NCBI GenBank assembly: GCA_045638265.1
Contig: JAZUBA010000077.1
Span: 4,655-68,654 of the forward strand
Source of the DNA: Alphaproteobacteria bacterium
GTDB lineage: Bacteria > Pseudomonadota > Alphaproteobacteria > CAAHEQ01 > UBA3637
Reading direction: 5' to 3'
DNA length: 64,000 bases
Shown: piece after piece, positions 1 to 44,007 of the stretch
Layout: each line of letters starts with the position of its first letter
Numbering within the stretch: position 1 is the stretch's first letter
Program-made: the position numbers and the translations under genes
Notes under the pieces: model-generated
Databases searched by the model: none
Told to the model about the DNA's origin: nothing
The model's input: only the letters and a program-made list of their open reading frames with translations

Positions 1-1185
1 AATAACTTTACCACCCATCGGTGTTTGTTGTTGAGCCATTTTGACAGCTTCTTGCATTGAGTTAGCTGAGTATGCTTGAATATCCGCTTGTTCAGCCATT
101 TGTGCAATGCGTGTACCCGTATCAGGGAGCGTAATAAACAAAATCCTGTTTTTTAGCGTTCTTGCATAGTCAATTAGAGGTTCATAAATCTGACCTCGGT
201 CATATCCTCCAACTAATAATGTTAAATATCCGCCGTTATCATAAGCTTTTAAAGCAGCAATTGCCGATTCAGGTGTTGTTGAAATACTATCATCAATAAA
301 AGTTAAACCATTAAAAGTTCCCACATTTTGTAACCGATGCGGTAATGCATTCATCGTTTGAAATGCAGATTGTATAACTTTATCTGTTATCGTTTGATTG
401 AATAATTTTAACACCGTTAAAACAGCACAGGCATTTAAAGCATTGTGTTCACCTTTTAAGTTTAAAAAATCTATGGCAAATAAAGCGGTATCATTATCAA
501 AAAACAGTCCTTTTTCTAAATGAATTGTATTGAATGTGTTGAATTGATGCAGATTTTGAACGTTTATTAATTCAGATAATATTGTTTCGTTTGAACCGTT
601 AATAACGGCTTGTTCAGATAATTGAATCAATTTACATTTATCTTGATAATAATTATGATGTGATAAATGCCATTGTAAATGTTCGGGATACAAATTCAGC
701 AAAACGGCAATATCACATCCTTTTGTTAAACCGGCACATTGATAACTGGATAATTCCGCAACAACAATATCCGGTTCATCAAACAGCATTTCAATTAACG
801 GAATACCGATATTACCCGCCAGTTTTACTGTGAACCCACATTGGACAAGTGTGTGATAAAGTAAAGAAGATGTTGTGCTTTTTCCTTTTGTTCCCGTAAC
901 ACCAATGACTTTTGTCTGTTCAGATTTATTATGCAAAAATAAATCTGTTCCCGTTGTAAAGATAATACCTTGTTTTTGAGCTTGTTGTATTTCGGGACGG
1001 TATAAACTGACACCAGGGGAGGTTATGACAATATCACAGTTATTTAACACCGTTAAATTGTTATCATCAAACGACAAAACCGTTGCGGAGGGAACAAAAC
1101 GGTTAACAGCTTGCACAACTGCCAGTCCTTCACGACCCATCCCCCAAATACCAACGGTTTTATTTTGTAAGTCTAGCCATTTCAT
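1..1185 (-). CDS. murD: UDP-N-acetylmuramoylalanine--D-glutamate ligase MurD; the C-terminal end runs off the window start
   Basis: Manual reverse-strand translation from the ATG (complement of 1183-1185): MKWLDLQNKTVGIWGMGREGLAVV...; Mur-ligase P-loop GVTGTKGKSTTSSL; C-terminal IDDSISTTPES motif; AAGGA RBS upstream. Not in the ORF track because it is open to the window edge. Confidence 0.8.
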   Translation of the reverse strand, partial: MKWLDLQNKTVGIWGMGREGLAVVQAVNRFVPSATVLSFDDNNLTVLNNCDIVITSPGVSLYRPEIQQAQKQGIIFTTGTDLFLHNKSEQTKVIGVTGTKGKSTTSSLLYHTLVQCGFTVKLAGNIGIPLIEMLFDEPDIVVAELSSYQCAGLTKGCDIAVLLNLYPEHLQWHLSHHNYYQDKCKLIQLSEQAVINGSNETILSELINVQNLHQFNTFNTIHLEKGLFFDNDTALFAIDFLNLKGEHNALNACAVLTVLKLFNQTITDKVIQSAFQTMNALPHRLQNVGTFNGLTFIDDSISTTPESAIAALKAYDNGGYLTLLVGGYDRGQIYEPLIDYARTLKNRILFITLPDTGTRIAQMAEQADIQAYSANSMQEAVKMAQQQTPMGGKVI

Positions 1186-1202
1186 TAGTTAAATATCCTT
1201 AT

Positions 1203-2585
1203 TTATGAGCGAAATTTTTGTATGACTTCGGGTTCAATTTCCGATGGAATCAAATGTTCTTCCGACGGAGTAAATAAATTCGGCAAGTCATTAAAATTCT
1301 GTACCTGACACACAGAATCAATTAACGCCTGAATAACGGTGTCATTTTGCCATTGCGGTTGTTCACTTAACATCATAAAAGCACAACGGCTTTCTTCAAT
1401 TTCACCAACACACTCAAATGGTTTATGACCGCTTAATCCTAATAATTCTTTAAAGCCTTCCGTTTGTGTGTCATCATTTAATGGATTGGTTCCAACGTAA
1501 CGCACTAAAATCTCTTTATCAACAAAAGGAGCTAATATTAAAAAAACAAAGCGACACTTATCACAATTACCGCACCAACGTTCAAGGCGTTTTGTTTCGT
1601 CTAATTTAAACGCTTTATTGCAACTGGTAAAGACTGGAAAATAGGCTTGACATTCACAGGCAAATAAACGGGCAATAGCTATTTCGGATAATGGTCGTAA
1701 TAGTGAAAAATATCTGAAATCAGGCGTAATGGCTCGTGTTATCTCATAAAAATTTTGTTCAAATTCAAATGATTTACTGTATTGATGGTTTACCATCAAA
1801 TCACCCTGCATTAGATTGCCGTTATTGGCAGAGCGTTCACACGAGAGAGCAACATATTGATAATTGTACAAAACGGCAGAAGCCCATAACACAAAAGCTA
1901 ACATCCCCGTAATCGGAACATGACCGTTTTTAACAGTGCCGGATTGATTTAATTCAATCAGATGCGGAGATATTTTTCTTGTCAAAGCAATTGAATCTAA
2001 ACCGGAAACGTGTATACACTCTTGAATGGGACGGGGTAATCCAACAGAAATTGCCTGACAATCTAAACCAATTTTTTTCAATATTTCCAACGTCAGACAC
2101 GAATCTTTTCCACCGCCGACAGGAACAAGATAACGATTTTTTAAATCAGTGTTATGTTTTTTTGTTGTGCTTGCACCGTAAGGGAATGATATTTTTCCTT
2201 GTAAATTCATATTGTTACGGACGGCAAACTCGCCTAAACCATTTACATAGAACCGATTAAAAAAATCTGCCTGTGTTTTTGAAAGAACTCCGCTTTCAAT
2301 GATAATTGTTTCGGGACAAAACGTTTTGTAATAACTGATACCGAAGGCAATATGGGTTAAAAAGAAAATATCATTTAAAATGAACCGTTGTGATTCGGTT
2401 AAAGAAAATGGGATTTGGGGAAAATAAAGATGTTCTTCAAACGTATGCAGAACGGTGTTTCCCTCTGAAACGGCATAATTTAAGACCAAATCACCCGTTT
2501 GTTCGTTAAAATCATAACTTTTGTAATAAAAAACCTTGCACAAAATATTTTTTCCTTTTAAAATAACGTTTATCTTGTTATACAT
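1203..2585 (-). CDS. PP-loop (SGGxDS) ATP-pyrophosphatase-fold protein of unknown function; candidate MurL-like ATP-dependent epimerase
   Basis: Track ORF 1203..2624. The track start is GTG; the first ATG (MYNKINVIL) is at 2585. Motif LVPVGGGKDSCLTLEIL (PP-loop) and a CGNCDKC cysteine cluster. The gene is co-directional with murD and ends 17 nt upstream of it. Confidence 0.55.
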   Translation of the reverse strand: MYNKINVILKGKNILCKVFYYKSYDFNEQTGDLVLNYAVSEGNTVLHTFEEHLYFPQIPFSLTESQRFILNDIFFLTHIAFGISYYKTFCPETIIIESGVLSKTQADFFNRFYVNGLGEFAVRNNMNLQGKISFPYGASTTKKHNTDLKNRYLVPVGGGKDSCLTLEILKKIGLDCQAISVGLPRPIQECIHVSGLDSIALTRKISPHLIELNQSGTVKNGHVPITGMLAFVLWASAVLYNYQYVALSCERSANNGNLMQGDLMVNHQYSKSFEFEQNFYEITRAITPDFRYFSLLRPLSEIAIARLFACECQAYFPVFTSCNKAFKLDETKRLERWCGNCDKCRFVFLILAPFVDKEILVRYVGTNPLNDDTQTEGFKELLGLSGHKPFECVGEIEESRCAFMMLSEQPQWQNDTVIQALIDSVCQVQNFNDLPNLFTPSEEHLIPSEIEPEVIQKFRS

Positions 2586-2617
2586 CAAATTCAAAAAAAA
2601 GCAAAGGGAATTTACAG

Positions 2618-3295
2618 ATGACACAAAGAAAAAAAAGAACGGCAGGTTCCCGTTTAATCTTTTTATTGATTGTTTTATCCGTTTTTGGCATTTGCCATGT
2701 GATTTTAAGAGATTTTAATATGACTCCGGCAGAGTTGTTTGAAACGGCACAAACGGCACAAAAAAACGGGTCATATCGCAAAGCGGAACGTTATTATCTA
2801 CGGGCAACAACGGCAGGGAATCCGAATGTAGCCTTAACAGCTTCATATTATTTGGGAAATCTTTATCGTACAGGAGGCGATGGATTTCCGATTAATGGGC
2901 AAAAAGCCGAAATGTTTTTAGAACAGGCAGCCTTAAAAAATATGCCACAGGCACAATACGATTTAGCTCTCATGTATGATACAGGGGATAAAATTAAAGC
3001 CAATCGTGAAAAAGCCATTAAATTAATGCAATCAGCTGTTGACAATAATTATCCGGATGCCTTTTATAGTATGGCGGTCTGGATTGAACGGGGTTATTTA
3101 GGAAAACCCGATATGCAACAAGCAATCGCTCTTTATGAAAAAGCCGCTATTCAAGGAAATGTTTATGCCATGACAAGTTTAATAACTTTATATGGTGGTT
3201 CGGCAGAAGGTGTTGAACCTAATCCCGAACGGGCTTCATTTTGGAAAACGGCATTGACAGAAATTAATAATGCATTGAAACCAAAAAAGAAATAA
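2618..3295 (+). CDS. Sel1-like repeat (SLR) protein with an N-terminal membrane anchor
   Basis: Several ~36-aa Sel1 repeats with A..G..A.Y.LG..Y.G periodicity (ASYYLGNLYRTG, AQYDLALMYDTG, AFYSMAVWIERG). Hydrophobic N-terminus LIFLLIVLSVFGI. Confidence 0.7.
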   Translation: MTQRKKRTAGSRLIFLLIVLSVFGICHVILRDFNMTPAELFETAQTAQKNGSYRKAERYYLRATTAGNPNVALTASYYLGNLYRTGGDGFPINGQKAEMFLEQAALKNMPQAQYDLALMYDTGDKIKANREKAIKLMQSAVDNNYPDAFYSMAVWIERGYLGKPDMQQAIALYEKAAIQGNVYAMTSLITLYGGSAEGVEPNPERASFWKTALTEINNALKPKKK

Positions 3296-3329
3296 TAATT
3301 ACAATATAACAAAAAAGGAAGGGGAAACT

Positions 3330-5840
3330 ATGGAATTAAAATATCGTAAAGACTATGTTGCACCACATTATCAATTACCGTTAACGGAACTTGATTTTAC
3401 ATTGCATCCGACTCAAACCATTGTTAAGGCTAAATTACATTTTAAAGATGTGGATACATCTAAACCGTTGGTTTTAAACGGACAATATATGACTTTAAAC
3501 AAAATTGCCATTGACGGTGTTGCTGTTGATAAGTCTGATTACGCTTTATCGGATAAAGACTTAATTTTAAATCCGCAAACAGCTGATTTTGTTTTGGAAA
3601 CGGAAGTTGAAATCAATCCGCAGGAAAATACACGTTTAATGGGTTTATATGTATCAAATGGTATATTCTGTACCCAATGTGAACCGGAAGGTTTTCGCAA
3701 TATCACTTACTATCCCGATCATTCGGATGTGCCGAGTAAATATATCGTAACCATCCATGCAGACCGAAAAAAATATCCTGTCTTATTGTCCAACGGAAAC
3801 GTAATTAAAGACGAAGGAGATACAATCGTTTTTGAAGACCCTTACAATAAGCCTTGTTATTTATTTGCTCTTGTTGCCGGTGATTTAGACAGTATTGAAG
3901 ATACATATACCACAGGTTCAGGTAAAAACGTTGATTTACGGTTATATTGCGAACGAGGTAAAGCCGACAGATTGACATTTGCCATGAGTGCTTTAAAACG
4001 CTCTATGGCCTGGGATGAAAAAGTATTTAATTTAGAGTATGATTTAAACCGTTTCAGTATTGTTGCCGTTTCTCATTTCAATGCCGGTGCGATGGAAAAC
4101 AAATCATTAAATATTTTCAATGATGCGGCCTTGCTTGCCTCTCCTGATACAGCAACGGATGCCAGTTATGAATATATTGAACATGTGATTGCACACGAAT
4201 ATTTCCATAATTACAGCGGAGACCGAGTAACAGTACGCAGTTGGTTTGAACTCTCTTTAAAAGAAGGTTTTACGGTCTTCCGTGATTCTGAATACGGTTA
4301 TGATACATTCTCACGTGCCGTCAGTCGTATTGATGACGTTGCTCAATTACGAGCTTATCAATTCCCCGAAGATGACGGACCGTTGGCACATCCTGTCAGA
4401 CCGGATTCTTATCATGAAATTGAAAACTTTTATACAACAACCATTTATGAAAAAGGTGCCGAAGTTATCCGTATGCAAAAAGCCTTACTGGGTGAGGAAA
4501 AATTTATGCGGGGCTGTGCTTTATATTTTAAACGTCATGACGGACAAGCCGTTACCATTGATGATTTTGTCAAAGCAATGGAAGATGTTTCCCGTAGTTC
4601 TTTAATTCAATTTAAGCATTGGTATTCTATTGCCGGTCGCCCGAAAGTTAAAGTTGTTACAAAATACGAAGACGGTATTTATACTATTCGTTTAACACAA
4701 AAACACCCGAAAACACGTCGTCCGTTTGTTATTCCGATGCATTACGGTTTAGTCGGTAAAAAGGGTGAAGATTTAAAATCAGGGACACTTGTTTTATCTC
4801 AAAAATCACAAACATTTTCTTTTAATGTCCCTTATGAACCGGCTTTATCTCTTAATCGTTTCTTTACATCACCGATTGATTTAGAAATTCATCATAAAAA
4901 AGCCATGCGGTTGCATTTGATGACTTATGATTCTGATTTGTTCAACAGATATGATGTCGGTCATCAATATGCATTAGACAGTATGGTCAATATGTATGAA
5001 AAAGGCACAACGGAAGCTGATATGGAAGTTATTCATGCTCTGGGCGCTTATTTATCACAAAAGAACTTGGATAAAGCCTTTTTGGCACGAGCCATTGTCT
5101 TGCCGACAGAAGAAGAGATTTTTGAACGAGTAGAGGTTGCCGATGTCAAGCGAATTAAACAAATTCGTAATGCGATGCGTTTAGCTTTTGCCAAATTATA
5201 TGAAGATAAGTTGTTAAAATTATATCAGGATAATCAAATCAAAGGACCTTATGTGCCGGATAATGAATCATTTGCTAAACGGGCAATTAAAAATGTTGCT
5301 TTGGGATATCTGGCTTTGCTTGGATATTCAGATTTGGTTAAAAAACAATATGATGAAGCAAATAATTTAACTGATAGATTAAGTGCTTTAAACATCTTGG
5401 TTAACAATGATTTGGCTGGTGTGGATGACGCATTGGCTGATTTCTATCAACGTTATGAAAATGACGATTTGGTCTTAAATAAATGGTTTGCCGTACAAGC
5501 TCGCAACAGTGCCAAAAATACGTTGCCGATTGTGCGTGAATTATTACAACATCCGAAATTTGATCTGAAAAATCCGAATAAAGTACGGGGTGTATTAGGT
5601 GCTTTCAGTGGCAATTTAGAATATTTCCATTGTGAAGAAGGTTATCGTTTCTTTGCGGAACAAACAATGGCTGTTGACAAAATCAATCCGAATTTGGCAG
5701 CTCGTTTATTTACGGCATTTTCAAAATATCGTAAATTAGATGAAGCAACCAAATCATCTGCTCAAGCGGTGTTAAAAGAATTGGCATCGGATAAAAATTT
5801 ATCCTCGATTTCCCGTGAAACGATTGAACGGATGATTTAA
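3330..5840 (+). CDS. pepN: Aminopeptidase N (M1 family zinc metallopeptidase)
   Basis: 836 aa. GAMEN motif (NAGAMENKSLN) and HEXXH-X18-E zinc site (VIAHEYFHNYSGD...LKEGFTVF). GGAAGGGG RBS. Confidence 0.92.
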   Translation: MELKYRKDYVAPHYQLPLTELDFTLHPTQTIVKAKLHFKDVDTSKPLVLNGQYMTLNKIAIDGVAVDKSDYALSDKDLILNPQTADFVLETEVEINPQENTRLMGLYVSNGIFCTQCEPEGFRNITYYPDHSDVPSKYIVTIHADRKKYPVLLSNGNVIKDEGDTIVFEDPYNKPCYLFALVAGDLDSIEDTYTTGSGKNVDLRLYCERGKADRLTFAMSALKRSMAWDEKVFNLEYDLNRFSIVAVSHFNAGAMENKSLNIFNDAALLASPDTATDASYEYIEHVIAHEYFHNYSGDRVTVRSWFELSLKEGFTVFRDSEYGYDTFSRAVSRIDDVAQLRAYQFPEDDGPLAHPVRPDSYHEIENFYTTTIYEKGAEVIRMQKALLGEEKFMRGCALYFKRHDGQAVTIDDFVKAMEDVSRSSLIQFKHWYSIAGRPKVKVVTKYEDGIYTIRLTQKHPKTRRPFVIPMHYGLVGKKGEDLKSGTLVLSQKSQTFSFNVPYEPALSLNRFFTSPIDLEIHHKKAMRLHLMTYDSDLFNRYDVGHQYALDSMVNMYEKGTTEADMEVIHALGAYLSQKNLDKAFLARAIVLPTEEEIFERVEVADVKRIKQIRNAMRLAFAKLYEDKLLKLYQDNQIKGPYVPDNESFAKRAIKNVALGYLALLGYSDLVKKQYDEANNLTDRLSALNILVNNDLAGVDDALADFYQRYENDDLVLNKWFAVQARNSAKNTLPIVRELLQHPKFDLKNPNKVRGVLGAFSGNLEYFHCEEGYRFFAEQTMAVDKINPNLAARLFTAFSKYRKLDEATKSSAQAVLKELASDKNLSSISRETIERMI

Positions 5841-5964: not shown

Positions 5965-7083
5965 ATGTTAAATCAGTTTAAAACCGCTTTAAATAACAAA
6001 TTAAAAGAAAGTGAACATATTTATACGATGTCTCGGATAGCCTTTATGACGTTTCTATCCGAAACGACCACACACTATTGTCGTCAAAAAATATATAATC
6101 CTGATGATAAGAACAAAATTATGGCATATGTTCGGCAAATTTTAAAACAATATTCTGTTCATGTAGAAAGAAAACCGATTGATGTGATACATCAATTAGA
6201 CAAAGAAACATCTTATTACCAAAATCATCATGCTTTGTTGAAAGCCATTCAAAATAAAGATGAGAATTATATTACAGAACTGTTGAAAAACAATAAAAAC
6301 AATCAAATTCATCATGCCTTACAATGTGCCGTTTATACTGAAAATCTAAAAGCTGTGTCATTGATTTTTGAATATGGATTAACAACTGAAAAACAAAAAG
6401 CCAAATTTGCTAAACGATGTTTAAGACATGTTGTTCGTGTTGGTAGTAAAAAGATGTTAAAAATATTTTTAAGGTACTTGCCCCTTCTTGCTGATGATAA
6501 TGGTACAACACGTCCTTTGGTGTTTGAATTAACACAAAATAGTGGAAGAAGCACACTTATTGAACTGCTTGTTAACCACGGGATGAATGTTCATGCACGT
6601 AACAAACAAGGTGATACGGTTTTACATGCAGCAGCAAAATCAGATTATGCCTCTGATTTATATTATGTTATATCAGACTTGGTATACAGATACAAAGTCA
6701 ATATCAATGCAACCAACAATAACAAAGAAACACCGATATATTGTGCGGCCAATGTATGTGAGGATAATTCGGATGTGATTACTTCCTTATTTTTAGCCGG
6801 TGCCGAAATAAATCCAACCACGACGTGTCCACCGTTGTTTGGCGCTATTAGAGCAGGATCGCTTGATAATATAAATATTTTGTTGAAGTATACAGCCAAT
6901 CCAAAAGCCAGTTATAAAGGAGAAACCACATTGGATTGTTTTAATCAATTACATGAAGATACTTTTTCACCGTATGTACGAGCACAAATAATTAAGCTAT
7001 TTACACCTGAACCGGCTAAACCGACATTAATTCAACGGGCGAAAGGTATATGTCAATCTATTCAGAAAATTTTTACCCGATAA
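5965..7083 (+). CDS. Ankyrin-repeat protein
   Basis: Repeated G(D/E)T(V/P)LH..A / N..N..G.TP(I/L) ankyrin signatures (QGDTVLHAAAK, KETPIYCAA). Confidence 0.6.
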   Translation: MLNQFKTALNNKLKESEHIYTMSRIAFMTFLSETTTHYCRQKIYNPDDKNKIMAYVRQILKQYSVHVERKPIDVIHQLDKETSYYQNHHALLKAIQNKDENYITELLKNNKNNQIHHALQCAVYTENLKAVSLIFEYGLTTEKQKAKFAKRCLRHVVRVGSKKMLKIFLRYLPLLADDNGTTRPLVFELTQNSGRSTLIELLVNHGMNVHARNKQGDTVLHAAAKSDYASDLYYVISDLVYRYKVNINATNNNKETPIYCAANVCEDNSDVITSLFLAGAEINPTTTCPPLFGAIRAGSLDNINILLKYTANPKASYKGETTLDCFNQLHEDTFSPYVRAQIIKLFTPEPAKPTLIQRAKGICQSIQKIFTR

Positions 7084-7144: not shown

Positions 7145-9478
7145 TTATTTCGGATAACATCGGCCATTTCTGTATTCACGGTTCATACATTTTTGGCAAT
7201 ATTCTTCCGTTGTTTCAACTGAAATGGCAGTATTACAAGGATAACAATTATTATCTTTACCTAAAATTTTGTTGTTATCAGAACAATATTCACGAACGCA
7301 GTAACCATCATTTCCGGTTGTTTTATTCATTTTGCGATTAGGGCAAATTTCATTGCATAAGTGATAATCTCTTGGTTCATATATCCAAACATTAGCCGTT
7401 TCATCACAATCATGACAAACACCCCATACATCAGGTAGAGGTTTTCCTTTTGTGCCGTTTTCTTCACTGTTGCACGTTGGATAACATACACTATGTCCAG
7501 TCATGGAACGATTTGGGCAAGAAGCACAATTTGTTTCAGTTGCAAGATTGTTTGAATCATGATGTTTTGGAGGATATGTGCAAGACATACACGAACCATT
7601 TTTATTCATAAATTTACCACTGGAACAACTATTTAAAATACATTTGTCGCCTGATTTTTTTCTGATGTTAGGACATAAATTTTCACATGTATCTGTCAGT
7701 GCAACATTATAAATAATCCCGTCATAATCACAAGGGTAACATTTGCCGTCCGTTGCTAACAATGGTTTTTCAGGGTCGGTACATGGTTTGCGACAATAAC
7801 CGTCTCCTCCAGATCTGTCCATCACTCTATCAGGACAAATTTCTTTACACAAATGGTAATCTCTCGTATCATATATCCAAATTCCAGCGTCTTCATCACA
7901 ATCATGACAAATACCCCATACATCCGCCAACTTTTTACCTTTTGTGCCGTTTTCTTCATTATCACACGTTGGATAACATACACTATAACTATTCATAGAA
8001 CGATTTGAACAAGAGGAACAATTTGTTGCAGTAGTAAGATTGTTTGAATCTTGATTTTTAGGAGGATATGTACAAGAAATACATTTACCGGAATTATTCA
8101 TAAATTTACCGCTTGGACATGCGTTTAAAAGACATTTATCTCCCGATGTTTTTCTGATGTTAGGACATAAATTTTCACATGTATCTGTGAGTGCAACATT
8201 ATAGATGATTCCATCATAATCACACGGATAACATTTACCGTCTGTTGCTAACAAAGGTTTTGCCGGATCAGTACATGGTTTGCGACAATATCCGTCTCCT
8301 CCCGGTCTATCCATAACACGATTAGGACAAATTTCTTTACATTTGTAATAATCTTTTGTCTCATACATCCAAATACCAGCATTCTCTTCGCATGAATAAC
8401 ATATGCCAAAAACATTTGCTAAAGGCTTACCTTTTGTTCCATTTTCTTCACTATCGCAAGTCGGATAACAAGCACCCCAATTATTACGGGTACGGTTTGG
8501 ACAAGAGGCACAATGTGTTGCTGTTGCCTTGTGATTTTCTGTGTTTGCTGTCGCTGGATATGTACAAGAACGGCAAATACCATGTATTGATGTAAACGTA
8601 CCTGTTCCGCATTCTAAATGGCAATATGATCCTTCTAAAATTCTATTTTCACATAAATCTGTGCATAATTTTGTGTTTGCCATAAGAAAACTGGATGTTT
8701 CATCGCAACTATGACAACCACCGTATTTGTCTACAATCGGTTTGTCTTCAGGACAACAGGTGCCGTTTTTATCACAACACTTACCTTCAGGTGATACAAA
8801 TGAACAACAGTATTGACCCGCAACATAATCTGTCGGACAACAAACTCTGTTACGTGGATTATTATAATCAATGGAGCATTTTTCTCCCACGGCACAATAT
8901 GTTTCACAAATTCCTGTTTCGGTATTACACGTTCCGCAGTAACAATCGTTGGTATGATTACACCGTTGTAATTCGTGACGGTCTTCTTCCGCCAAATCTG
9001 TTTCGCCCAACAAATCTTCATGAAATTCATAAGCAATCGTAACTGTTTCAGTATCATCACAAATAGAAACATCTCCCTCATATCGTTTAATATTAACAAA
9101 TGTTGAAAACGGCAAAGTCCAATTTGACTGTAAAATTTGTTTACAAACATCAGAGGGTACATCAGATACAAACATTTCAAAGAAATCAACATATTGCGGA
9201 TGTGTACGTGCTGTTATGGGATAACCCGAACGTGTTACATTGCCCATTTCCATATCTATTATGCCGACAAAATTACTTTCAATGATTTGATCCATTCGTT
9301 GTGAGATATCATGAGCCCGAATATTAAGTTCATTTATTGTTTCATTAGCATTGTATTTATTAAAAGCATAACGATAACCTTGAATTGCACCGATAGATAA
9401 CACACCAACAACAGCCAAAACACCCAGCATTTCAACCATTGATCTTCCCAATTCGTTGATTTTAAAAGCTTTTCTCAT
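7145..9478 (-). CDS. Giant cysteine-rich secreted or surface protein with a type IV pilin-like (class III) N-terminal leader and three internal tandem repeats
   Basis: N-terminus MRKAFKINELG|RSMVEMLGVLAVVGVLSIGAIQGY has the G(-1)/E(+5) prepilin-like pattern followed by a hydrophobic helix. About 100 Cys residues in CxxC/CC/CxC clusters and many NxS/T sites. Three ~195-aa repeats (YP..N..ATNC.SC.NR...CYPTC..EENGTKGK.L...). Confidence 0.6.
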   Translation of the reverse strand: MRKAFKINELGRSMVEMLGVLAVVGVLSIGAIQGYRYAFNKYNANETINELNIRAHDISQRMDQIIESNFVGIIDMEMGNVTRSGYPITARTHPQYVDFFEMFVSDVPSDVCKQILQSNWTLPFSTFVNIKRYEGDVSICDDTETVTIAYEFHEDLLGETDLAEEDRHELQRCNHTNDCYCGTCNTETGICETYCAVGEKCSIDYNNPRNRVCCPTDYVAGQYCCSFVSPEGKCCDKNGTCCPEDKPIVDKYGGCHSCDETSSFLMANTKLCTDLCENRILEGSYCHLECGTGTFTSIHGICRSCTYPATANTENHKATATHCASCPNRTRNNWGACYPTCDSEENGTKGKPLANVFGICYSCEENAGIWMYETKDYYKCKEICPNRVMDRPGGDGYCRKPCTDPAKPLLATDGKCYPCDYDGIIYNVALTDTCENLCPNIRKTSGDKCLLNACPSGKFMNNSGKCISCTYPPKNQDSNNLTTATNCSSCSNRSMNSYSVCYPTCDNEENGTKGKKLADVWGICHDCDEDAGIWIYDTRDYHLCKEICPDRVMDRSGGDGYCRKPCTDPEKPLLATDGKCYPCDYDGIIYNVALTDTCENLCPNIRKKSGDKCILNSCSSGKFMNKNGSCMSCTYPPKHHDSNNLATETNCASCPNRSMTGHSVCYPTCNSEENGTKGKPLPDVWGVCHDCDETANVWIYEPRDYHLCNEICPNRKMNKTTGNDGYCVREYCSDNNKILGKDNNCYPCNTAISVETTEEYCQKCMNREYRNGRCYPK
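7150..8600 (-). repeat. Three intragenic tandem repeats of ~585 bp (high DNA identity) inside the Cys-rich gene
   Basis: Near-identical DNA blocks, e.g. ~7670-7830 vs ~8150-8310 (tttctgatgttaggacataaattttcacatgtatctgt...ggtttgcgacaata...ccgtctcctcc). Confidence 0.7.
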
Positions 9479-33136: not shown

Positions 33137-33213
33137 GTTCCCGTAGCTCAGTAGGATAGAGCGTAGGATTCCTAATCCTAAGGCCGTGGGTTCGATTCCC
33201 TCCGGGAACGCCA
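33137..33213 (+). tRNA. tRNA-Arg (anticodon CCT)
   Basis: Hand fold: acceptor GTTCCCG/CGGGAAC; D-arm GCTC-AGTAGGATA-GAGC; anticodon arm TAGGA-TTCCTAA-TCCTA (U33, CCT, A37); T-loop TTCGATT; encoded CCA. There is one U-U mismatch in the T-stem. Confidence 0.7.
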
Positions 33214-33220
33214 TTTATCA

Positions 33221-33670
33221 ATGACAAAGGTACTACAAAATATTTATGCAACATGTGTTGTATATCAAGAGGTGGGTTTACTCATTTGTGGAAAAAGCGG
33301 ATGTGGAAAATCTTCATTGGCATTGTCATTGATAGAAAAAGGTGCTTATCTGGTTAGCGATGACCGAACGGATTTATTTGATAAAGACGGTGTTTTGTAT
33401 GCCAAAGCACCGTCTTTGTTATATGATTTAATGGAAGTGCGACATATCGGTTTGGTTTCAGGGTGGCCGACAAAACAAGAAACGCCCATTCATTGCATTA
33501 TACATTTGTGTGAAACAGAGCCTAATCGGTTACCCATAAATATTAAAGAAAATTTGTACGGTTATGAAATAATGTCGTTTTCATTAAATCAGTATGATTT
33601 TGCCTTGACAAGCAAAATAAATACTGTTATACAAATCATTAAAAAAAAATTGATTTTAAAGTCAATTTAA
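33221..33670 (+). CDS. hprK: HPr kinase/phosphorylase, short alphaproteobacterial form (C-terminal catalytic domain only)
   Basis: P-loop LICGKSGCGKSSLALSL and capping region LVSDDRTDL...MEVRHIGLV; 149 aa. Confidence 0.8.
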   Translation: MTKVLQNIYATCVVYQEVGLLICGKSGCGKSSLALSLIEKGAYLVSDDRTDLFDKDGVLYAKAPSLLYDLMEVRHIGLVSGWPTKQETPIHCIIHLCETEPNRLPINIKENLYGYEIMSFSLNQYDFALTSKINTVIQIIKKKLILKSI

Positions 33671-33693
33671 TCATTCAAAAATAAGGAGTTTAA

Positions 33694-34083
33694 ATGTTAG
33701 GGATTGTATTAGTTGGACATAATAATTTACCGGAAGCCATGTTGACAGTTGTTAAACATGTTGTCGGTCATACAGACGGTATGACATGTGTCTGTATTGA
33801 TATACATGATGATATGGAAGAAAAACGTCATGAAATTTTAGAAAAAACAATTTCTGTTGATACGGGTGACGGTGTTATTGTTGTAACGGATATGTTTGGC
33901 GGTACACCTTCTAATTTGGCTATTTCATTGATGGAAGAACGTAATATTGAAGTGATTTCAGGGATGAATGTGCCGATGTTGGTTAAATTGGCAGAACAAC
34001 GTTCTGAAACAATGCAAACAGCTGTTAAAAATGCACAGGAAGCAGGACGTAAATATATCAATATTGCCTCTAATTTGTTGTAA
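33694..34083 (+). CDS. PTS EIIA component, mannose/fructose family (regulatory)
   Basis: MLGIVLVGHNNLPEAM with the phosphorylatable His near position 9; 129 aa; AAGGAG RBS. Confidence 0.8.
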   Translation: MLGIVLVGHNNLPEAMLTVVKHVVGHTDGMTCVCIDIHDDMEEKRHEILEKTISVDTGDGVIVVTDMFGGTPSNLAISLMEERNIEVISGMNVPMLVKLAEQRSETMQTAVKNAQEAGRKYINIASNLL

Positions 34084-34433: not shown

Positions 34434-34508
34434 GTATAAATATTGACAAATTATTCTTTTTAATGTATCTTATAACAATATATGAAATTCAAGCAAAAGG
34501 AAAACGAA

Positions 34509-35174
34509 ATGAATCAAACTGACAAAGTTATTGATATGCAAAATGAATTTGGAGAAACACGATTAATGAAAAGTGTTTTATCCGGTTGTATAGCCGGTGT
34601 TAAAATAGCTCTTGCACAAGGGGCATCTTTAAATATTCAGGATAAAATGGGACATACGGCTTTAGCACTCGCTTGTATTTATAATCATCCTGAGATTGAA
34701 AAATTGCTTATTCAGGCCGGCGCTGATGTTAACATTTCAGATATATCTCATACAACACCGCTTATTCACGCTTGTTATAATGGAAATACGGCACAAATTA
34801 AACGATTGATAAAAGCCGGCGCTGATGTTAACGCTAGTGATTATGATGATATGAGTCCGTTAACATATGCTGTTAAATCAAACGTTTTAAGTGCGGTGGA
34901 AGCTGTATTGGAAGCACAACCGAATGTAAATATACAAGATATGCACAAACGGACACCACTTATCTGGGCATCAACTCCTGATCGGATTGATATGTTTGAA
35001 GTTTTATTGAAAGCAGGGGCTTCAACGGAAATTTGTGATAAGAATGGGAAAACGGTACTTGATTATGCTATTAAAATGCAAAATCCGAAAGCTGTGAAAT
35101 TAATACAACAATATCAGCCCAAAATGCGGAAAATGGTTAATCAATATCTCAATCATGAAAAGCAAAACGGATAA
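34509..35174 (+). CDS. Ankyrin-repeat protein
   Basis: GETRLMKSV, GHTALALAC, HTTPLIHACYNG and SPLTYAVKS repeats. The track start is 34482, but AAAAGGAAA then ATG at 34509 is the better start. A TTGACA promoter box lies at 34443. Confidence 0.75.
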   Translation: MNQTDKVIDMQNEFGETRLMKSVLSGCIAGVKIALAQGASLNIQDKMGHTALALACIYNHPEIEKLLIQAGADVNISDISHTTPLIHACYNGNTAQIKRLIKAGADVNASDYDDMSPLTYAVKSNVLSAVEAVLEAQPNVNIQDMHKRTPLIWASTPDRIDMFEVLLKAGASTEICDKNGKTVLDYAIKMQNPKAVKLIQQYQPKMRKMVNQYLNHEKQNG

Positions 35175-35192: not shown

Positions 35193-35942
35193 ATGACAAA
35201 TTTAAATTATCGTGAACAGGAAAAAATATGGTTTCAATATATTGAAAAAAACGATATTGAAATGATAAAATCTTGTATTAAAGAAAATTTTGATATTAAT
35301 TTACAAAACAAAGATGGTGAAACAGCGTTGATGAAATTTGCACAACAAGGAAATAATGAAGTTGTTGAATTGTTAATCAACGCAGGGGCAAATTTAAATA
35401 TAACTGATGAATATGGTGATACGGCTTTAATTAAAGCGATTGAACATTTTCATTTAAACACATTAAAATTGTTAGTTGAACGTGGTGCAGATATTCATCA
35501 GGAAAATGAATCTCATGATTCGCCGTTGATGGTTGCCTGTGAAATCGGAAATGTAGAAGCCGGACGATATTTGCTAAATCAAGGAGCTAATCATCGGCAT
35601 ACAAATACTTGTGATGAAACAGCCGTTATTAAAGCAGCCCAACATGGGTCGTTGCCTAACTTAATGGATTTAATTTCTGTTGGCGCCGATATTAATGCAC
35701 AAGATACACGTGGTAAAACAGCATTAATGCATGCCATTGAACAAGGACATAATAAAGTTGTTGATGTTTTATTGTTACACAAAGCAAACACAGCCATTAA
35801 AAACAATCAATGCAAAACGGCCCGACAAATTGCCTATCAGTGTAAAAATAAAACAGCATTGTATTTATTTTCTATACATGAACCCGGTTTGAAAGATGTA
35901 TTTAAAATGTTGCTCTTTGGGTTTCAAAGGCAACGTGATTAA
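35193..35942 (+). CDS. Ankyrin-repeat protein
   Basis: GETALMKFAQQG, GDTALIKAIEH, DSPLMVACEIG and KTALMHAIEQG repeats. Confidence 0.8.
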   Translation: MTNLNYREQEKIWFQYIEKNDIEMIKSCIKENFDINLQNKDGETALMKFAQQGNNEVVELLINAGANLNITDEYGDTALIKAIEHFHLNTLKLLVERGADIHQENESHDSPLMVACEIGNVEAGRYLLNQGANHRHTNTCDETAVIKAAQHGSLPNLMDLISVGADINAQDTRGKTALMHAIEQGHNKVVDVLLLHKANTAIKNNQCKTARQIAYQCKNKTALYLFSIHEPGLKDVFKMLLFGFQRQRD

Positions 35943-37295: not shown

Positions 37296-38267
37296 ATGAG
37301 AGAATTGTCAGTAGATGAGTTGTGTCAAAATGTACATCGTCCGATTAAAGGGACTTTTCGCATATATAAAACTAAACCTAAAACCTCTGTTGAACAATCT
37401 GTTACGGAAATGATTGAAGAAGCAAAACAACAAAAGTGTATGATTGTTTCAGAATTTAAAGGTATTCCCATTATGGTTGATGAGCAATCAACCGTTTCTG
37501 GTATTGTGAAATCTTATGAATGTGAATCTAAAGCACGTTTGGCTGAAAATAAAGAAATGCGAAAGTTTGTGATTAATTTAAAACAAACATATTTGATGAA
37601 TTTGTCAATGGGAACAGATATTTATACTGCTACAGATAATATGATTAAGGTTGCTCAAGCTTTAAATGGGATTGTATTTGCAAAATTCAATACCGTTCCC
37701 TTTGCCGTTAATCAACATTCAACTCTTGACGGGGTTATTAACGGTTTTCAAACAGAAGTGAGTGAACGAAGTGAAGCATATAAAAATTCACCAGAGGGTC
37801 AAAAACGGGCATTAGAAGAAAAACGGCGAGAAATTGAAGATTATAAATTAGGGATTCAGGTTGATGAACTTATTAAAAATGAAGAATTGTCCATCACATC
37901 TCCAATTCATTTTAATAAATTAAAAACAAATGCTGAAAAAGAGGGGTTATCAGCCATTGTTGATGTTGCCAATCGTTGGGGTCGTTTAATGCAGATTGAA
38001 ATGAAAAATCAAAATACAAACAAATTAACGCAGAAAATGGTTGCTTCAACTTATAAAATGGCAACAGCCGGAAAGTCGGATTATAATCTGTCCGGTTCTC
38101 TGTATGGCTTTGTACGTAATATGTTGATTGTTTGTTGGGATAAGGGTCGTGATTTAGCACAAATTGAACGATTTAATATGACAGAAGTTGATACGGTTCG
38201 TCATGAAGTTCAATCAGCTGAGAAGAATATTAAAACGCCAATTAAAACAAATAATTATACACGATAA
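37296..38267 (+). CDS. Hypothetical protein
   Basis: 323-aa ORF with a strong promoter, RBS and terminator; no recognisable motif. Confidence 0.5.
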   Translation: MRELSVDELCQNVHRPIKGTFRIYKTKPKTSVEQSVTEMIEEAKQQKCMIVSEFKGIPIMVDEQSTVSGIVKSYECESKARLAENKEMRKFVINLKQTYLMNLSMGTDIYTATDNMIKVAQALNGIVFAKFNTVPFAVNQHSTLDGVINGFQTEVSERSEAYKNSPEGQKRALEEKRREIEDYKLGIQVDELIKNEELSITSPIHFNKLKTNAEKEGLSAIVDVANRWGRLMQIEMKNQNTNKLTQKMVASTYKMATAGKSDYNLSGSLYGFVRNMLIVCWDKGRDLAQIERFNMTEVDTVRHEVQSAEKNIKTPIKTNNYTR

Positions 38268-39711: not shown

Positions 39712-42700
39712 ATGTTAAACATCAATAAAAAACAAAAATCAGAAACCAAACTCAAATTAGAAAAAAAGAGAAAAAAGTTAGGGAAACCAATACGTTTAAC
39801 ACATACTTTTGCAAAAGCAAAAAATAGTGCAGTTTTCAGAACTGCACGAAAATCATTGAAAGCAGTTCCTTATATGGGAACAGGCTTAGTATTTGGTGAT
39901 AGCGAATTAATACGATTAATTACAAAATTTGATTTAGCTAAAATAGCAACAAACAACATTGATGGCCTTTTGCATATAAAAGATGCTGCATCGTATATCA
40001 TAAATAATCCAAAAGAAGTTACCAATGAATTATTCGGAGAAGGATTAATTGCTGGCATTCGTGAAACAGCGGTAACCTTACATGATAACATTTCATTAAC
40101 AGGCCATGTCATTGATCCTTCACATAAAGCAAAAGCTTGGATTGCAGACAGTCTTGGTGCGCACAAAGTGTCCTACATAGATGAAAATGGAGAATCAAAA
40201 TTATCCATCGAGAAACAAGAGTATATCTACTCATATGTGCCTTATGGTCCCGACTCGGAAGCACGAGCCAGACTTTTTGTTTATCGACCAGCAGAAGGCT
40301 TAACAGATCAAACAGATGCTAATGGTGAAAAAATAAGAGAATTTTTAAGGGTTCCTGTTGCAGAATTTGACATTCAAAATGACCGCGTAACATATGAAGT
40401 TGAATACAATTCAGATGGGACAAAAACTATTCATTCATATAATGATGAAAATCCGCAATATCAACACTTACAAGAAAATTTTCTAAAAAATAAAATCATC
40501 AATACAAATGAAATTTTTGCTCGTTTCGGAATGCCTGAAACAAAAGTCGGCAACTATTTTGGACAAAAAACAGCAACAGATGTTTTAAAATCAATTAAAA
40601 TAGGTAAACGGATTAGTTCACAAACATACGGCAAAGGAGAAACATATACCGTAATTGATTGGGATAATAGTCAAGATGATAAACTTGTATTTGCAGAAAT
40701 ATACGAACAAATGAATACAAAAACATCTGCTAGATCTCAGTCAGCAGGTATCGTTATGAAAAATATAACAAAAGGAACTGAATATAATAGTGTTTCATAT
40801 GAAGATTTAAAAGAACTAGGTATCAATATCAATGGCGACAAAAATGATTTAAATGTAAGAACACGCATTTTAAAAGATATTTCAAAGAAACTTCATTATA
40901 TCAGAGCAACACAATCTTTTCAAATCATTCAACCTTACCAAGAAACAACTCAAACAAATTTTCAATATTACCGACAAACTGTTAATTATATAAAGAATAC
41001 TGAGGATGAACGTTCAGATTTTTTTAGCAAACATCCATTGTTTGGTCAACGCGACAACACATATATTTCTGAAATAATTGATTATAATATAAATGAAAAA
41101 TCTTTTTTTGACAAAGATGGAAATATAATTTTAAGTGTAACATTTGATAATCCTTCTCAATATAATCATTATCAATATATACCCAACAACATTTTCATTC
41201 CAACAAATACGGATGGGATTAATATGCAATTTGCTCCAACGGGAGAATTTTTAGGCTTTCAATCGGACGAACACACTGCCAATTTAGAAAAATTAAAGCG
41301 ATTACTTGCAGAAAAAGAATTATTACAAAATTTTGATTACTTAAAAAAAACTCTTGGTGTTAAAACATTACCTGAAATACGTAACAAACTAAATCAATTA
41401 TCTAAAACAGAAGATGTTTCTGCATGGGTTGAAATAGTTAATAGTATAGAACACTATGATTTAAAAAATTTTGATGCTCAAGTAATTGATGTGGAATTAG
41501 AAAAATTTACTGCAAAAAATGAACAATTTGAAAAACAGTTTACTGAACTTAAAAAGAAACATATTCAGCGGAATAAAGATGGAAATATTCGTATTTCAAC
41601 AAAATATCATCCGCTTATAATTGGTAAGGAAATTGTTGTAACAAATGAAAACAATAAAAAAGAAAAAATCATAAAAATCAATCAGCTTACGGGATATCCA
41701 CTTACCTTTGAAACATCAGAATATAAATCTCATCGTGATTTTCCGATAGAAGAAACCGATACACAAGAATTTTATTCTTACATGGGCAGAGAAGGGAATT
41801 TTGACTATTATAGAATTAATTACAATGGAACACCAAATACACAAAATTACGGTGGATATGTAAAAGAAGATGCTGTAACGGGAATTTGTCATACATTTAA
41901 TCGCCATGGAAATTGTATTTATATTGATGTCCCTAATGGAGATATAAACACAGATGAAAATTGGGCTTACAATTCAAACTCTGATAGGTATAAACGCATA
42001 TATGAAATGATTATCGAATCAGACAAAGGAGGTGTTTTTTCCAATAATGATGTTCTTGAAATGGCAAAAAAACATAAAGAAACTAACATTCCATTTGATT
42101 ACTTCTCCAAATTAGCAAAATACGAACATATGTTAAAGGAACCTCTGAGAATATCTGGTATAAAAAATCAATATATTCGCTTAAATACATATACGGCTGA
42201 ATTAATCAAAAAAGAGCTTATAACAGATACATATATTGATAACCAACTGAAATGCTTATCTGAATTGGAAACCATATTAAACGGGATTCCAAAACAAACA
42301 GCAGCAATTAAAACTCAAAAAGAAGCATTAAAAAAACAACGCAATATTTTAAAAGAAATGTATCAAAAACCAATAGATGAAAAGACACAAGATATCATCA
42401 AACAAGTTTTACTTTTTGATAATCAGGCAAAGCATTGTCTTTATATACCTTCACACGCTACCCAAATTGATACCAATCAATATATATCAAAAAATGATAA
42501 TTATACAAAAAACTCAGTTATAACAAAATGTTACAATCAAAAAAATCCAGCACAAACTGTATATCGCATTAATTCAAACAAGGGGGAATTTGCTGGATTA
42601 ATTATTGAAGATAAAAAAACAACAATTTGTCAAATATATGATAACAATGGATATTTAATTGAAGTAGACAAACCATTAGACACTTCTTCCGATGAAACAA

Positions 42701-43047
42701 ACTGGTATTCTTTGAATGATTTAAATAATCCTCGCTTATGTGATATGATAGACATTGTTGCAAAAAGAATGTCGTTATATCAATATGCATATGGTATAAA
42801 TAAAAATTGTCCAACATATGAAAATCGTTTAACAAAACAAATACGTTTTGATAAATTTAAGGAAAGGAAGAAACTTGAAATGACAATAGCAGAAACAGAT
42901 TTTTCTCCATTTTTTGATGATTCATATTCATATACGGATAATCTTATCAATGAGACATTGGTCAAAAATGCACAAAAATTTGACACAGATTCTAGGGATA
43001 TTAAAAATAAAAATTCATCTATTTCAAATAAAAATCAATCCAGATAA
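39712..43047 (+). CDS. Very large (1111 aa) orphan hypothetical protein with basic N- and C-termini (candidate secreted effector)
   Basis: Single long ORF, Asn/Lys/Tyr-rich, no recognisable catalytic motif; N-terminus KKQKSETKLKLEKKRKKLGK. Confidence 0.5.
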   Translation: MLNINKKQKSETKLKLEKKRKKLGKPIRLTHTFAKAKNSAVFRTARKSLKAVPYMGTGLVFGDSELIRLITKFDLAKIATNNIDGLLHIKDAASYIINNPKEVTNELFGEGLIAGIRETAVTLHDNISLTGHVIDPSHKAKAWIADSLGAHKVSYIDENGESKLSIEKQEYIYSYVPYGPDSEARARLFVYRPAEGLTDQTDANGEKIREFLRVPVAEFDIQNDRVTYEVEYNSDGTKTIHSYNDENPQYQHLQENFLKNKIINTNEIFARFGMPETKVGNYFGQKTATDVLKSIKIGKRISSQTYGKGETYTVIDWDNSQDDKLVFAEIYEQMNTKTSARSQSAGIVMKNITKGTEYNSVSYEDLKELGININGDKNDLNVRTRILKDISKKLHYIRATQSFQIIQPYQETTQTNFQYYRQTVNYIKNTEDERSDFFSKHPLFGQRDNTYISEIIDYNINEKSFFDKDGNIILSVTFDNPSQYNHYQYIPNNIFIPTNTDGINMQFAPTGEFLGFQSDEHTANLEKLKRLLAEKELLQNFDYLKKTLGVKTLPEIRNKLNQLSKTEDVSAWVEIVNSIEHYDLKNFDAQVIDVELEKFTAKNEQFEKQFTELKKKHIQRNKDGNIRISTKYHPLIIGKEIVVTNENNKKEKIIKINQLTGYPLTFETSEYKSHRDFPIEETDTQEFYSYMGREGNFDYYRINYNGTPNTQNYGGYVKEDAVTGICHTFNRHGNCIYIDVPNGDINTDENWAYNSNSDRYKRIYEMIIESDKGGVFSNNDVLEMAKKHKETNIPFDYFSKLAKYEHMLKEPLRISGIKNQYIRLNTYTAELIKKELITDTYIDNQLKCLSELETILNGIPKQTAAIKTQKEALKKQRNILKEMYQKPIDEKTQDIIKQVLLFDNQAKHCLYIPSHATQIDTNQYISKNDNYTKNSVITKCYNQKNPAQTVYRINSNKGEFAGLIIEDKKTTICQIYDNNGYLIEVDKPLDTSSDETNWYSLNDLNNPRLCDMIDIVAKRMSLYQYAYGINKNCPTYENRLTKQIRFDKFKERKKLEMTIAETDFSPFFDDSYSYTDNLINETLVKNAQKFDTDSRDIKNKNSSISNKNQSR

Positions 43048-43134: not shown

Positions 43135-44007
43135 TTACTCTCTACAACCTCGTTCTTGGTGTGCTGCCAAAGATTTTTGTTGTGTTGTTACTTTTGATAT
43201 ACCTGTTTTTATTGTATCCATTTTTTGAATTAAATGTTTTAATTCAATAAATTGGATTGAACTCTTAATCATTGTGCTATCTTTAATAGCTTTATAAGCA
43301 TAATCACGAGCCGTTTCCCCAAATTCATTTTGAAGCGTTATATCTGCCCCGTTATTGATTAATGCTTCAGCAATATTATAACGCGCATTTTGAATGGCTA
43401 TCATTAATGCCGTTTCACCCCATCTGTTTTGTTTGTTTAAATTGGCATTTAATTGAATAATTTGTTCTACATCACTTGTTTTACCTGTATGAGCCAACAA
43501 CATTAAAGCAGTATTACCGTCTTTATTTTTTGCATTTATATCAGCACCGGCTTTGATTAACGATTCTGTCAAATATGTTTTCCCCGATGTAACAGCATAC
43601 ATCAAAGCAGTAAACCCATTTTTTTCTTTATCATTAACATTTGCCCCATTCTGAATTAATGTTTCTGCAATGTTTTTGTGACCTCTGCTTGCCGCCCACA
43701 TTAAAGGTGTTATACCATTCACATCTTTAACGTTTATATCTGCTTTGGCATGAATTAAAGCCTCTACAATTTGAGTTAAACCATGGTAAGCAGCCTCCAT
43801 TAAAGGTGTATTCCCAAGCATATCTTTTGTATGAATATCTTTGCCTTCATTGATTAATGCAATTGCTTTTTCTTCATGACCTTGTTGAATTGCCTCCATT
43901 AATAAAGATTTTTTTTCTGCTTGTGGGTAATATACGGCACAATCCATATTCAGGATAGGTTTAATGTCTATCATTTTTTTTCTCCATAAGTTGAAATTAC
44001 TATTCAA
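43135..44007 (-). CDS. Ankyrin-repeat protein
   Basis: Six or more canonical repeats (GNTPLMEAAYHG, GITPLMWAASRGH, GFTALMYAVTSG, GNTALMLLAHTG, GETALMIAIQNA). Confidence 0.85.
   Translation of the reverse strand: MNSNFNLWRKKMIDIKPILNMDCAVYYPQAEKKSLLMEAIQQGHEEKAIALINEGKDIHTKDMLGNTPLMEAAYHGLTQIVEALIHAKADINVKDVNGITPLMWAASRGHKNIAETLIQNGANVNDKEKNGFTALMYAVTSGKTYLTESLIKAGADINAKNKDGNTALMLLAHTGKTSDVEQIIQLNANLNKQNRWGETALMIAIQNARYNIAEALINNGADITLQNEFGETARDYAYKAIKDSTMIKSSIQFIELKHLIQKMDTIKTGISKVTTQQKSLAAHQERGCRE

Follow-up and report, generated by a model that had tools for sequence, protein, structure and literature searches.

A racemase-independent route to the D-Glu of peptidoglycan was described in 2017 for Xanthomonas. 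Orthologues of its two enzymes, MurD2 and MurL, have been assayed from X. oryzae, Micromonospora, and Salinispora (PMC8788868, PMC5808125). The ligation of L-Glu by MurD2 is known experimentally, and only for the orthologues from these organisms (PMC8788868). The MurL orthologues require ATP and Mg2+, convert one ATP to AMP per turnover, and work strictly in the L-to-D direction; for the X. oryzae enzyme, both this stoichiometry of AMP formation and this directionality are established by experiment (PMC8788868, PMC5808125). Described here is a murL-murD2 pair from an Alphaproteobacteria bacterium (CAAHEQ01; UBA3637), encoded in a 64,000-nt stretch of DNA (assembly GCA_045638265.1, contig JAZUBA010000077.1, positions 4,655-68,654 of the forward strand) that is referred to throughout as the window. 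On the basis of its sequence, the pair very probably constitutes a bicistronic operon providing this alternative route to peptidoglycan D-Glu. The operon is a further example of a pathway that is already represented in NCBIfam and Pfam models.

The murL open reading frame is located on the minus strand at 1203-2585, with an ATG at 2585-2583 and a TAA stop codon at 1205-1203. An earlier note on this DNA had placed a 461-residue protein at these positions, with no strand given, and had suggested that it was a PP-loop ATPase resembling MurL. The reading frame is as described, but the length is not; the 461 codons include the stop, and the encoded protein contains 460 residues. It is no chance reading frame, with 7968 database proteins matching it at E values of 1e-5 or lower, the best at 96% identity, although a look-up by exact sequence gave no match to the window protein. 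The resemblance to MurL was borne out by the profile search that the earlier note had proposed. NCBIfam model NF041275 ('MurL_Xanthmoales', UDP-N-acetyl-alpha-D-muramoyl-L-alanyl-L-glutamate epimerase) matches the protein from end to end with E = 6.9e-125 and 417 bits, residues 17-454 aligning with positions 8-443 of the 447 in the profile (436 positions). The only other NCBIfam match, and the only one to a different PP-loop family, is a 35-residue stretch over the PP-loop shared with TtuA (E = 0.0095). The BLASTP alignment with the MurL of Stenotrophomonas maltophilia is collinear over 445 residues (37% identity, E = 8e-103), and all of the motifs are common to the two proteins, namely GGGKDS, NGHVP, NHQYSK, SCN, WCGxCxKC, and PFECVGE. 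The Pfam domains MurL_N (PF26299) and MurL_epimerase_C (PF26298) are found on the 96%-identical relative (P0001) and on 120 of the 120 homologues among the matches listed. The local copy of Pfam gave no match to the window protein itself, and this two-domain architecture is thus read indirectly from the homologues. The names given by NCBI to some of these homologues (P0054 and P0113) are 'endonuclease domain-containing protein' or 'hypothetical protein'.

The gene for the partner ligase, murD2, follows immediately downstream on the same strand. It occupies positions 1-1185 (minus strand) with an ATG at 1185, and it is cut by the start of the window such that its first 395 codons lie inside. 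The two genes had been said to be co-directional and 17 nt apart, and this is exact, with the spacer extending from 1186 to 1202 (minus strand) and containing, as read from the sequence, a Shine-Dalgarno motif for murD2 (AAGGA, 1200-1196). In a 97%-identical copy on a metagenome contig (L001:5002-6282), murD2 is of full length and encodes 426 residues, and the next gene downstream is a convergent one for a flavin mononucleotide reductase. The murL-murD2 unit would thus be bicistronic and lie outside of any dcw cluster. The 96%-identical MurL relative is found on this and one other short metagenome contig (L002) with the same gene context. A promoter and terminator scan of window positions 1-3400 yielded nothing above shuffled expectation.

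When GTDB was scanned, one genome for each species, with a 47-sequence family alignment, for which the PFECVGE motif was chosen as one of the two most conserved stretches, 595 relatives of MurL were revealed. For the analysis of linkage, the window and two metagenome contigs were added to the best 80 of these 595 relatives, which gave 83 loci. In 77 of them, murD is positioned directly downstream of, and co-directional with, murL. The remaining six loci include two with murD downstream at a distance of 0.6-1.4 kb, two from Micromonospora in which the genes are adjacent and divergent, and two in which the contig ends. The linkage spans Alpha- and Gammaproteobacteria, Actinobacteria, the candidate phyla radiation (CPR), and Sericytochromatia. 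Furthermore, fusions of 800-914 residues between MurL and MurD were recognized by Pfam, with MurL first in P0121, P0126, P0128, P0145, P0164, and P0236, and MurD first in P0226. These fusions, found in both orders, provide independent evidence of the joint working of the two activities.

This adjacency, together with the extent of the sequence matches, bears on whether the window protein could instead belong to another PP-loop family, such as TtuA, TilS, MnmA, or QueC/Cap9, and be a neighbor of murD by chance. Its matches to such families do not extend past the nucleotide-binding core (35-41 residues by sequence and 160-173 by structure, at 13-16% identity), whereas the MurL model extends from end to end at E = 7e-125, and a murD gene lies next to murL in the 77 loci noted above. 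A chance neighbor of this type is considered to be exceedingly improbable. As candidates, the tRNA-modifying families (TtuA, TilS, and MnmA) were rejected, the TtuA match being limited to its 35 residues, a PDB phmmer search giving E = 0.017, and no match reaching beyond the PP-loop. Membership in the QueC family was likewise rejected; there was no QueC match in NCBIfam or the local Pfam, the hhalign probability was 2.8% and concerned the PP-loop only, and the Cys spacing in MurL is x15. TilS and MnmA, like QueC, are absent from the NCBIfam and local Pfam matches of the window protein.

The partner ligase contains the MurD-like_N, Mur_ligase_M, and Mur_ligase_C domains, and it scores 259.9 bits against TIGR01087 murD, for which the cut-off is 211.95. 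As a consequence, automatic pipelines would name it an ordinary D-Glu MurD. The residues known to govern specificity point elsewhere. In X. oryzae MurD2, E197, R358, P433, and F435 occupy the positions of D182, K348, A414, and L416 in E. coli MurD; the E197D/R358K double mutation converts the X. oryzae enzyme into a D-Glu ligase, and the K319T mutation allows E. coli MurD to take L-Glu (PMC8788868). E. coli MurD was aligned with the murL-linked ligases from the window, from both metagenome contigs, and from 78 of the genome loci; its literature numbering was verified on K115, H183, and K198, and the counts given refer to sequences covering the position in question. Glu168 of the window ligase (682-684, minus strand) corresponds to Asp182 of the E. 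coli enzyme and to Glu197 of X. oryzae MurD2, a chirality determinant, and is a glutamate in 75 of 81 linked MurDs. The second chirality determinant, Arg330 (196-198, minus strand), is equivalent to E. coli Lys348 and X. oryzae Arg358, and an arginine is found there in 74 of 76. The position of E. coli Lys319 is filled by Ile301 (283-285, minus strand), and all 77 of the sequences that cover it have either isoleucine or leucine. The positions of A414 and L416 fall outside of the window. In the 97%-identical copy they are proline and tyrosine, and in the 74 linked MurDs that reach them the former is proline in 73 and the latter is phenylalanine in 39 and tyrosine in 35. Overall, the MurD2 signature is present in about 74 of the 81 linked MurDs, and the characterized MurD2 from S. 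maltophilia (SmltD) has Glu, Ile, Arg, Pro, and Phe at the five positions.

Four canonical MurDs with known structures, from E. coli, S. agalactiae, T. maritima, and A. baumannii, all keep K319, and three of them have both D182 and K348. The S. agalactiae enzyme has threonine and arginine at the latter two positions, and an arginine at the K348 position is by itself not diagnostic, for this D-Glu MurD of Streptococcus agalactiae (3lk7) has one too. Because of Glu168, Ile301, and Arg330 in place of D182, K319, and K348, the window ligase is assigned by its sequence to the L-Glu (MurD2) type, and in this the inspection of specificity residues that the earlier note had proposed came out in favor of its suggestion.

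Not all of the linked ligases conform to this pattern. An aspartate at the D182 position is kept in four CPR partners (L027, L050, L053, and L059) and in one from Rhodanobacteraceae (L052), and in these five, as far as the sequences extend, the other positions are Ile, Arg, and Pro. The partner MurD at locus L020 is aberrant, with Cys, Ile, Val, and Ala at positions 182, 319, 348, and 414.

According to reviews from 2018 and 2021, MurL 'lacks known conserved domains' (PMC8788868, PMC5808125). Searches of PDB sequences with the window protein revealed no solved MurL, and only PP-loop fragments of TtuA, MnmA, and MJ0690 were retrieved. A model of the protein was calculated with AlphaFold2 from a 54-sequence alignment, and its mean predicted local distance difference test (pLDDT) value is 91.5 with a predicted template modeling score of 0.90. 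The fold of this confident model is of the PP-loop/QueC-like type, in keeping with the PP-loop ATPase that had been suggested from the sequence. The loop itself is not the SGGKDS reported in the earlier note but the variant V-GGGKDS, the first glycine of which is nearly invariant in the family. Residues 157-162 (2100-2117, minus strand) form this predicted binding loop for the ATP pyrophosphate. In the model the loop follows a strand at 149-155 and leads into a helix at 160-171, in agreement with the SGGxDS-type loop of the PP-loop superfamily, which comes after the first strand in a Rossmann-like core, and with the family profile GGGKDS aligns with the PP-loop of TtuA at E = 5e-5. Among 47 diverse homologues, G158, G159, K160, and D161 are invariant, and conservation is 90% or higher at G157 and S162.

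The remaining invariant positions in these 47 members are G221, H222, P224, E250, N266, H267, Q268, S270, K271, E276, S294, R297, E301, S321, C322, N323, C338, C341, K343, C344, P389, C392, V393, and G394. Included are five cysteines. Four of them are contained in a cluster, C322-x15-C338-x2-C341-x2-C344 (SCN...WCGNCDKCRF; 1554-1622, minus strand), and C338, C341, and C344 (1574-1554) make up the CxxCxxC arrangement that had been noticed previously. QueC binds zinc at its Cys site and adenylates a carboxylate. By analogy, the four-Cys cluster of MurL is predicted to be a structural Zn site of the QueC type. The fifth, Cys392 (1410-1412, minus strand), lies in the P-F-E-C-V-G-E motif and is a candidate, albeit a speculative one, for the acid/base in the inversion at C-alpha.

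The kinship of the fold raises the question of whether a MurL-family PP-loop enzyme in this organism could perform a different chemistry, by amidating the Glu alpha-carboxylate to iso-glutamine, for example, or by epimerizing another substrate. The closest folds, namely QueC, NAD synthetase, asparagine synthetase, and GMP synthase, adenylate and then transfer nitrogen, and the identity to the assayed MurLs is only 37-38%. On the other hand, all 36 of the family-invariant positions are retained in the window protein, including those of the PP-loop, the His, Glu, Lys, and Arg residues, and the five cysteines. In addition, no glutaminase or ammonia-channel partner is adjacent to murL, the same operon is found in the assayed lineages, and the L-Glu signature of the partner ligase makes an epimerase necessary. 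A change in chemistry thus appears quite improbable, and an epimerase acting on the muramyl dipeptide is strongly preferred.

A mechanism for such an epimerase can be proposed. MurL would bind ATP at the GGGKDS PP-loop and adenylate the alpha-carboxylate of the terminal L-Glu with release of pyrophosphate. In the activated species C-alpha would be more acidic, and it would then be inverted, possibly by way of an oxazolone that involves the preceding amide, or with the help of a base on the enzyme, for which C392 or one of the invariant histidines might serve. A final hydrolysis would yield AMP and the D-Glu product.

With regard to the supply of D-Glu, neither murI nor a class-IV aminotransferase (Aminotran_4) was found by Pfam or NCBIfam scans among the approximately 50 open reading frames of the 64-kb window. 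A tblastn search with E. coli MurI gave no match at E values of 1e-5 or lower in the window or in 82 MurL-bearing loci, and only noise in the window at E values up to 10. It is plausible that the organism depends upon the MurL/MurD2 route. The genome could, of course, have another source of D-Glu in murI or in a D-amino-acid transaminase, and perhaps a canonical MurD as well, in which case a working MurL/MurD2 pair would be redundant and the suggestion in the earlier note that the genome may lack glutamate racemase would be wrong. The region examined is limited to 64 kb, and the peptidoglycan genes that it contains (for a MurC/Mpl-like ligase, LdcA, SLT, and PBP5) lie outside of any dcw cluster; given such scattering, murI could be anywhere in the genome. 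Nevertheless, genera bearing MurL/MurD2 are reported to be without D-Glu-forming genes, and free D-Glu would be of little use to a MurD2 that has no second MurD beside it, as MurD2-type ligases use D-Glu very poorly (PMC8788868). For this last reason an epimerase would still be needed, barring a second canonical MurD. Furthermore, murI-like sequences were absent from the window and, in 80 other genomes, from the DNA up to 8 kb away from murL. Redundancy is therefore judged to be unlikely, albeit by no means negligible, and dependence upon MurL and MurD2 is favored.

Three of the peptidoglycan genes are grouped. The gene for the SLT lytic transglycosylase (16927-18693, minus strand) adjoins that for the MurC/Mpl-type ligase (19394-20767, plus strand), which scores 267 bits as murC and 129 as mpl, both under the cut-off, and the latter overlaps by 4 nt with a gene for an LdcA-like LD-carboxypeptidase (20764-21633, plus strand). 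Together they resemble a module for peptidoglycan recycling, by which peptides already holding D-Glu would be salvaged.

Several observations weigh against the assignment of the operon to the MurL/MurD2 route. The assayed orthologues closest to the window MurL are only about 37-38% identical to it. Its 417 bits fall short of the curated equivalog cut-off of 700 bits for NF041275. The C-terminal 31 residues of MurD2, with the proline and aromatic positions, lie beyond the window and were read from the 97%-identical metagenomic copy. The absence of murI, dat, and a second canonical murD concerns 64 kb, a small part of the genome. Finally, the placement of the adenylate on the alpha-carboxylate, the inversion by an oxazolone or an enzyme base, and the binding of metal by the cysteine cluster are features that we infer. 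With respect to the cut-off, NF041275 gives 826 bits for the S. maltophilia protein, 432 each for homologues from Peribacteria and from a gut alphaproteobacterium, and 397 for the MurL of Micromonospora. Inasmuch as orthologues from the latter genus have been assayed, the cut-off, which is tuned to Xanthomonadales, marks order and not function, and the window protein outscores that of Micromonospora.

The MurL family extends more widely than the lists in the literature, in which Devosia, Pelagibacterium, and Parvularcula are the only Alphaproteobacteria (PMC8788868). When 1.84 billion cluster representatives were searched exhaustively, 2550 family members were obtained at E values of 1e-3 or lower, of which 1151 were at 1e-30 or lower (50%-identity clusters). 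Members occur as well in Emcibacter, Stellaceae, Micavibrio, Solirubrobacterales, Acidimicrobiia, Sericytochromatia, and several CPR lineages. The nearest relatives of the window MurL in GTDB species genomes, with identities of at most 62%, are from uncultured Alphaproteobacteria of rabbit, horse, rumen, and human gut metagenomes. Pairs of murL and murD in lineages outside of the published lists were observed in the CPR (Parcubacteria, Gracilibacteria, Peribacteria, and Patescibacteria; loci L027, L050, L053, L057, L059, L065, and L069), in Sericytochromatia (L030), in Solirubrobacterales (L034, L068, and L077), and in Acidimicrobiia (L084). One MurL-bearing contig, with 50% identity (L010), is binned as Holdemanella biformis and is probably a binning contaminant.

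The true start of murL is probably not the ATG at 2585 but a TTG at 2543-2541, which would give a protein of 446 residues. The TTG is preceded, after a 9-nt spacer, by the Shine-Dalgarno motif AAAGGA (2558-2553), such that the alternative initiation region covers 2541-2558 on the minus strand. Many homologues begin with MCK[AV]FYYK exactly at the position encoded by this TTG, and residues 1-14 are disordered in the AlphaFold2 model, with pLDDT values below 50. It is on these three grounds that the TTG is favored. Upstream of the MCK start there is a conserved in-frame 'KGK' (AAAGGAAAA). A GTG at 2624 was rejected as a start, for murL would then overlap with the divergent Sel1 gene, and the GTG is supported by no homologue.

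Elsewhere in the window, which has a GC content of 30-37%, seven ankyrin-repeat proteins are encoded (5965-7083, 13841-15472, 15491-16930, 24051-26810, 34482-35174, 35193-35942, and 43135-44007), in addition to the Sel1-repeat protein at 2618-3295. Together they suggest an association with a eukaryotic host. Some of the ankyrin proteins have sub-threshold matches to models of Legionella Dot/Icm Ank effectors. At 7145-9478 on the minus strand is the gene for a Cys-rich protein of 777 residues with a type-IV-pilin-like hydrophobic N-terminus (…MVEMLGVLAVVGVLS…) and no Pfam match; it contains three 492-nt tandem repeats (7337-7636, 7829-8128, and 8321-8620) that are 63-80% identical. At 50090-53283 and 54890-55570 (minus strand) and at 37296-38267 (plus strand) there are genes of a phage-like remnant, for a cell-wall hydrolase, for a tail-fibre protein of the gp53-like/BppL type, and for a fragment of a HerA-like ATPase, as well as an open reading frame that weakly matches the anti-Thoeris Tad4 domain. 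The surrounding GC content is about 29-30%. The only RNA gene found in the window is that for tRNA-Arg(CCT) at 33137-33213 (plus strand). It is followed at 33221-34083 (plus strand) by genes for a regulatory pair of the phosphotransferase-system type, namely a short protein with an HPr-kinase C-terminal domain and an EIIA-Man protein. Large open reading frames at 39712-43047 (plus strand), 26886-29374 (minus strand), and 57803-59527 (plus strand), encoding 1111, 400, 397, and 574 residues, gave no significant match in Pfam or NCBIfam.

A more far-reaching picture can be drawn from these data, although it is offered tentatively and is perhaps rather doubtful as a whole. MurL may be a QueC-like PP-loop adenylating enzyme with a four-Cys metal site, in which C392 serves as an acid/base or forms a transient thioester; the route may be far wider than the dozen or so listed genera; and in this lineage, which is rich in ankyrin proteins and probably host-associated, it may be the sole source of D-Glu for the wall.

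The known biology of the pathway is unchanged by the window operon, and its added value is modest. Recognition of the murL-murD2 pair does, however, correct the cell-wall pathway that would be predicted for an uncultured lineage of Alphaproteobacteria, which would be expected to be unaffected by inhibitors of glutamate racemase and affected by those of MurD2 or MurL. In addition, the predicted PP-loop/QueC-like fold and the five invariant cysteines provide a structural frame for the proposed adenylation and a short list of candidate residues.

In comparison with the known systems, the window MurL has the same invariant motifs as the MurLs described to date, the same place immediately upstream of murD2, and a similar length (446-460 versus about 450 residues). 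It differs in its origin, an uncultured lineage of low GC content (about 34%) belonging to a group of gut and rumen Alphaproteobacteria that is outside of the published distribution lists. The window ligase, like the known MurD2 enzymes, is a three-domain Mur ligase in which the chirality positions are Glu and Arg and Lys319 is replaced by a hydrophobic residue; in the metagenomic copy, the remaining two positions of the pocket are filled by a proline and an aromatic residue. The aromatic residue is a tyrosine where X. oryzae MurD2 has F435, as is also the case in 35 of the 74 linked MurDs. With SmltD, which contains 464 residues as opposed to 426 in the window-type enzyme, the identity is about 33%.

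Against QueC, and against the Cap9 protein of the cyclic-oligonucleotide-based antiphage signaling system (CBASS), the identity of MurL is 13-16% and hhalign aligns only the PP-loop, indicating kinship at the level of the fold and not membership. The zinc site of E. coli QueC, TCY-x8-GCGHCAAC, resembles the SCN-x15-WCGxCxKC of MurL, with a spacing of x8 versus x15. MurL is further set apart from QueC and Cap9 by an additional domain at its N-terminus (residues 17-123) and by a helical C-terminal region in which the PFECVGE motif lies, and by analogy with its orthologues it would act on a UDP-muramyl dipeptide with no nitrogen-transfer step. Finally, in the canonical pathway, in which MurI or Dat supplies a D-Glu MurD, the inversion takes place on free glutamate before ligation and is cofactor-free and reversible, whereas in the MurL/MurD2 route it follows ligation, costs one extra ATP, and proceeds in one direction only (PMC8788868, PMC5808125).

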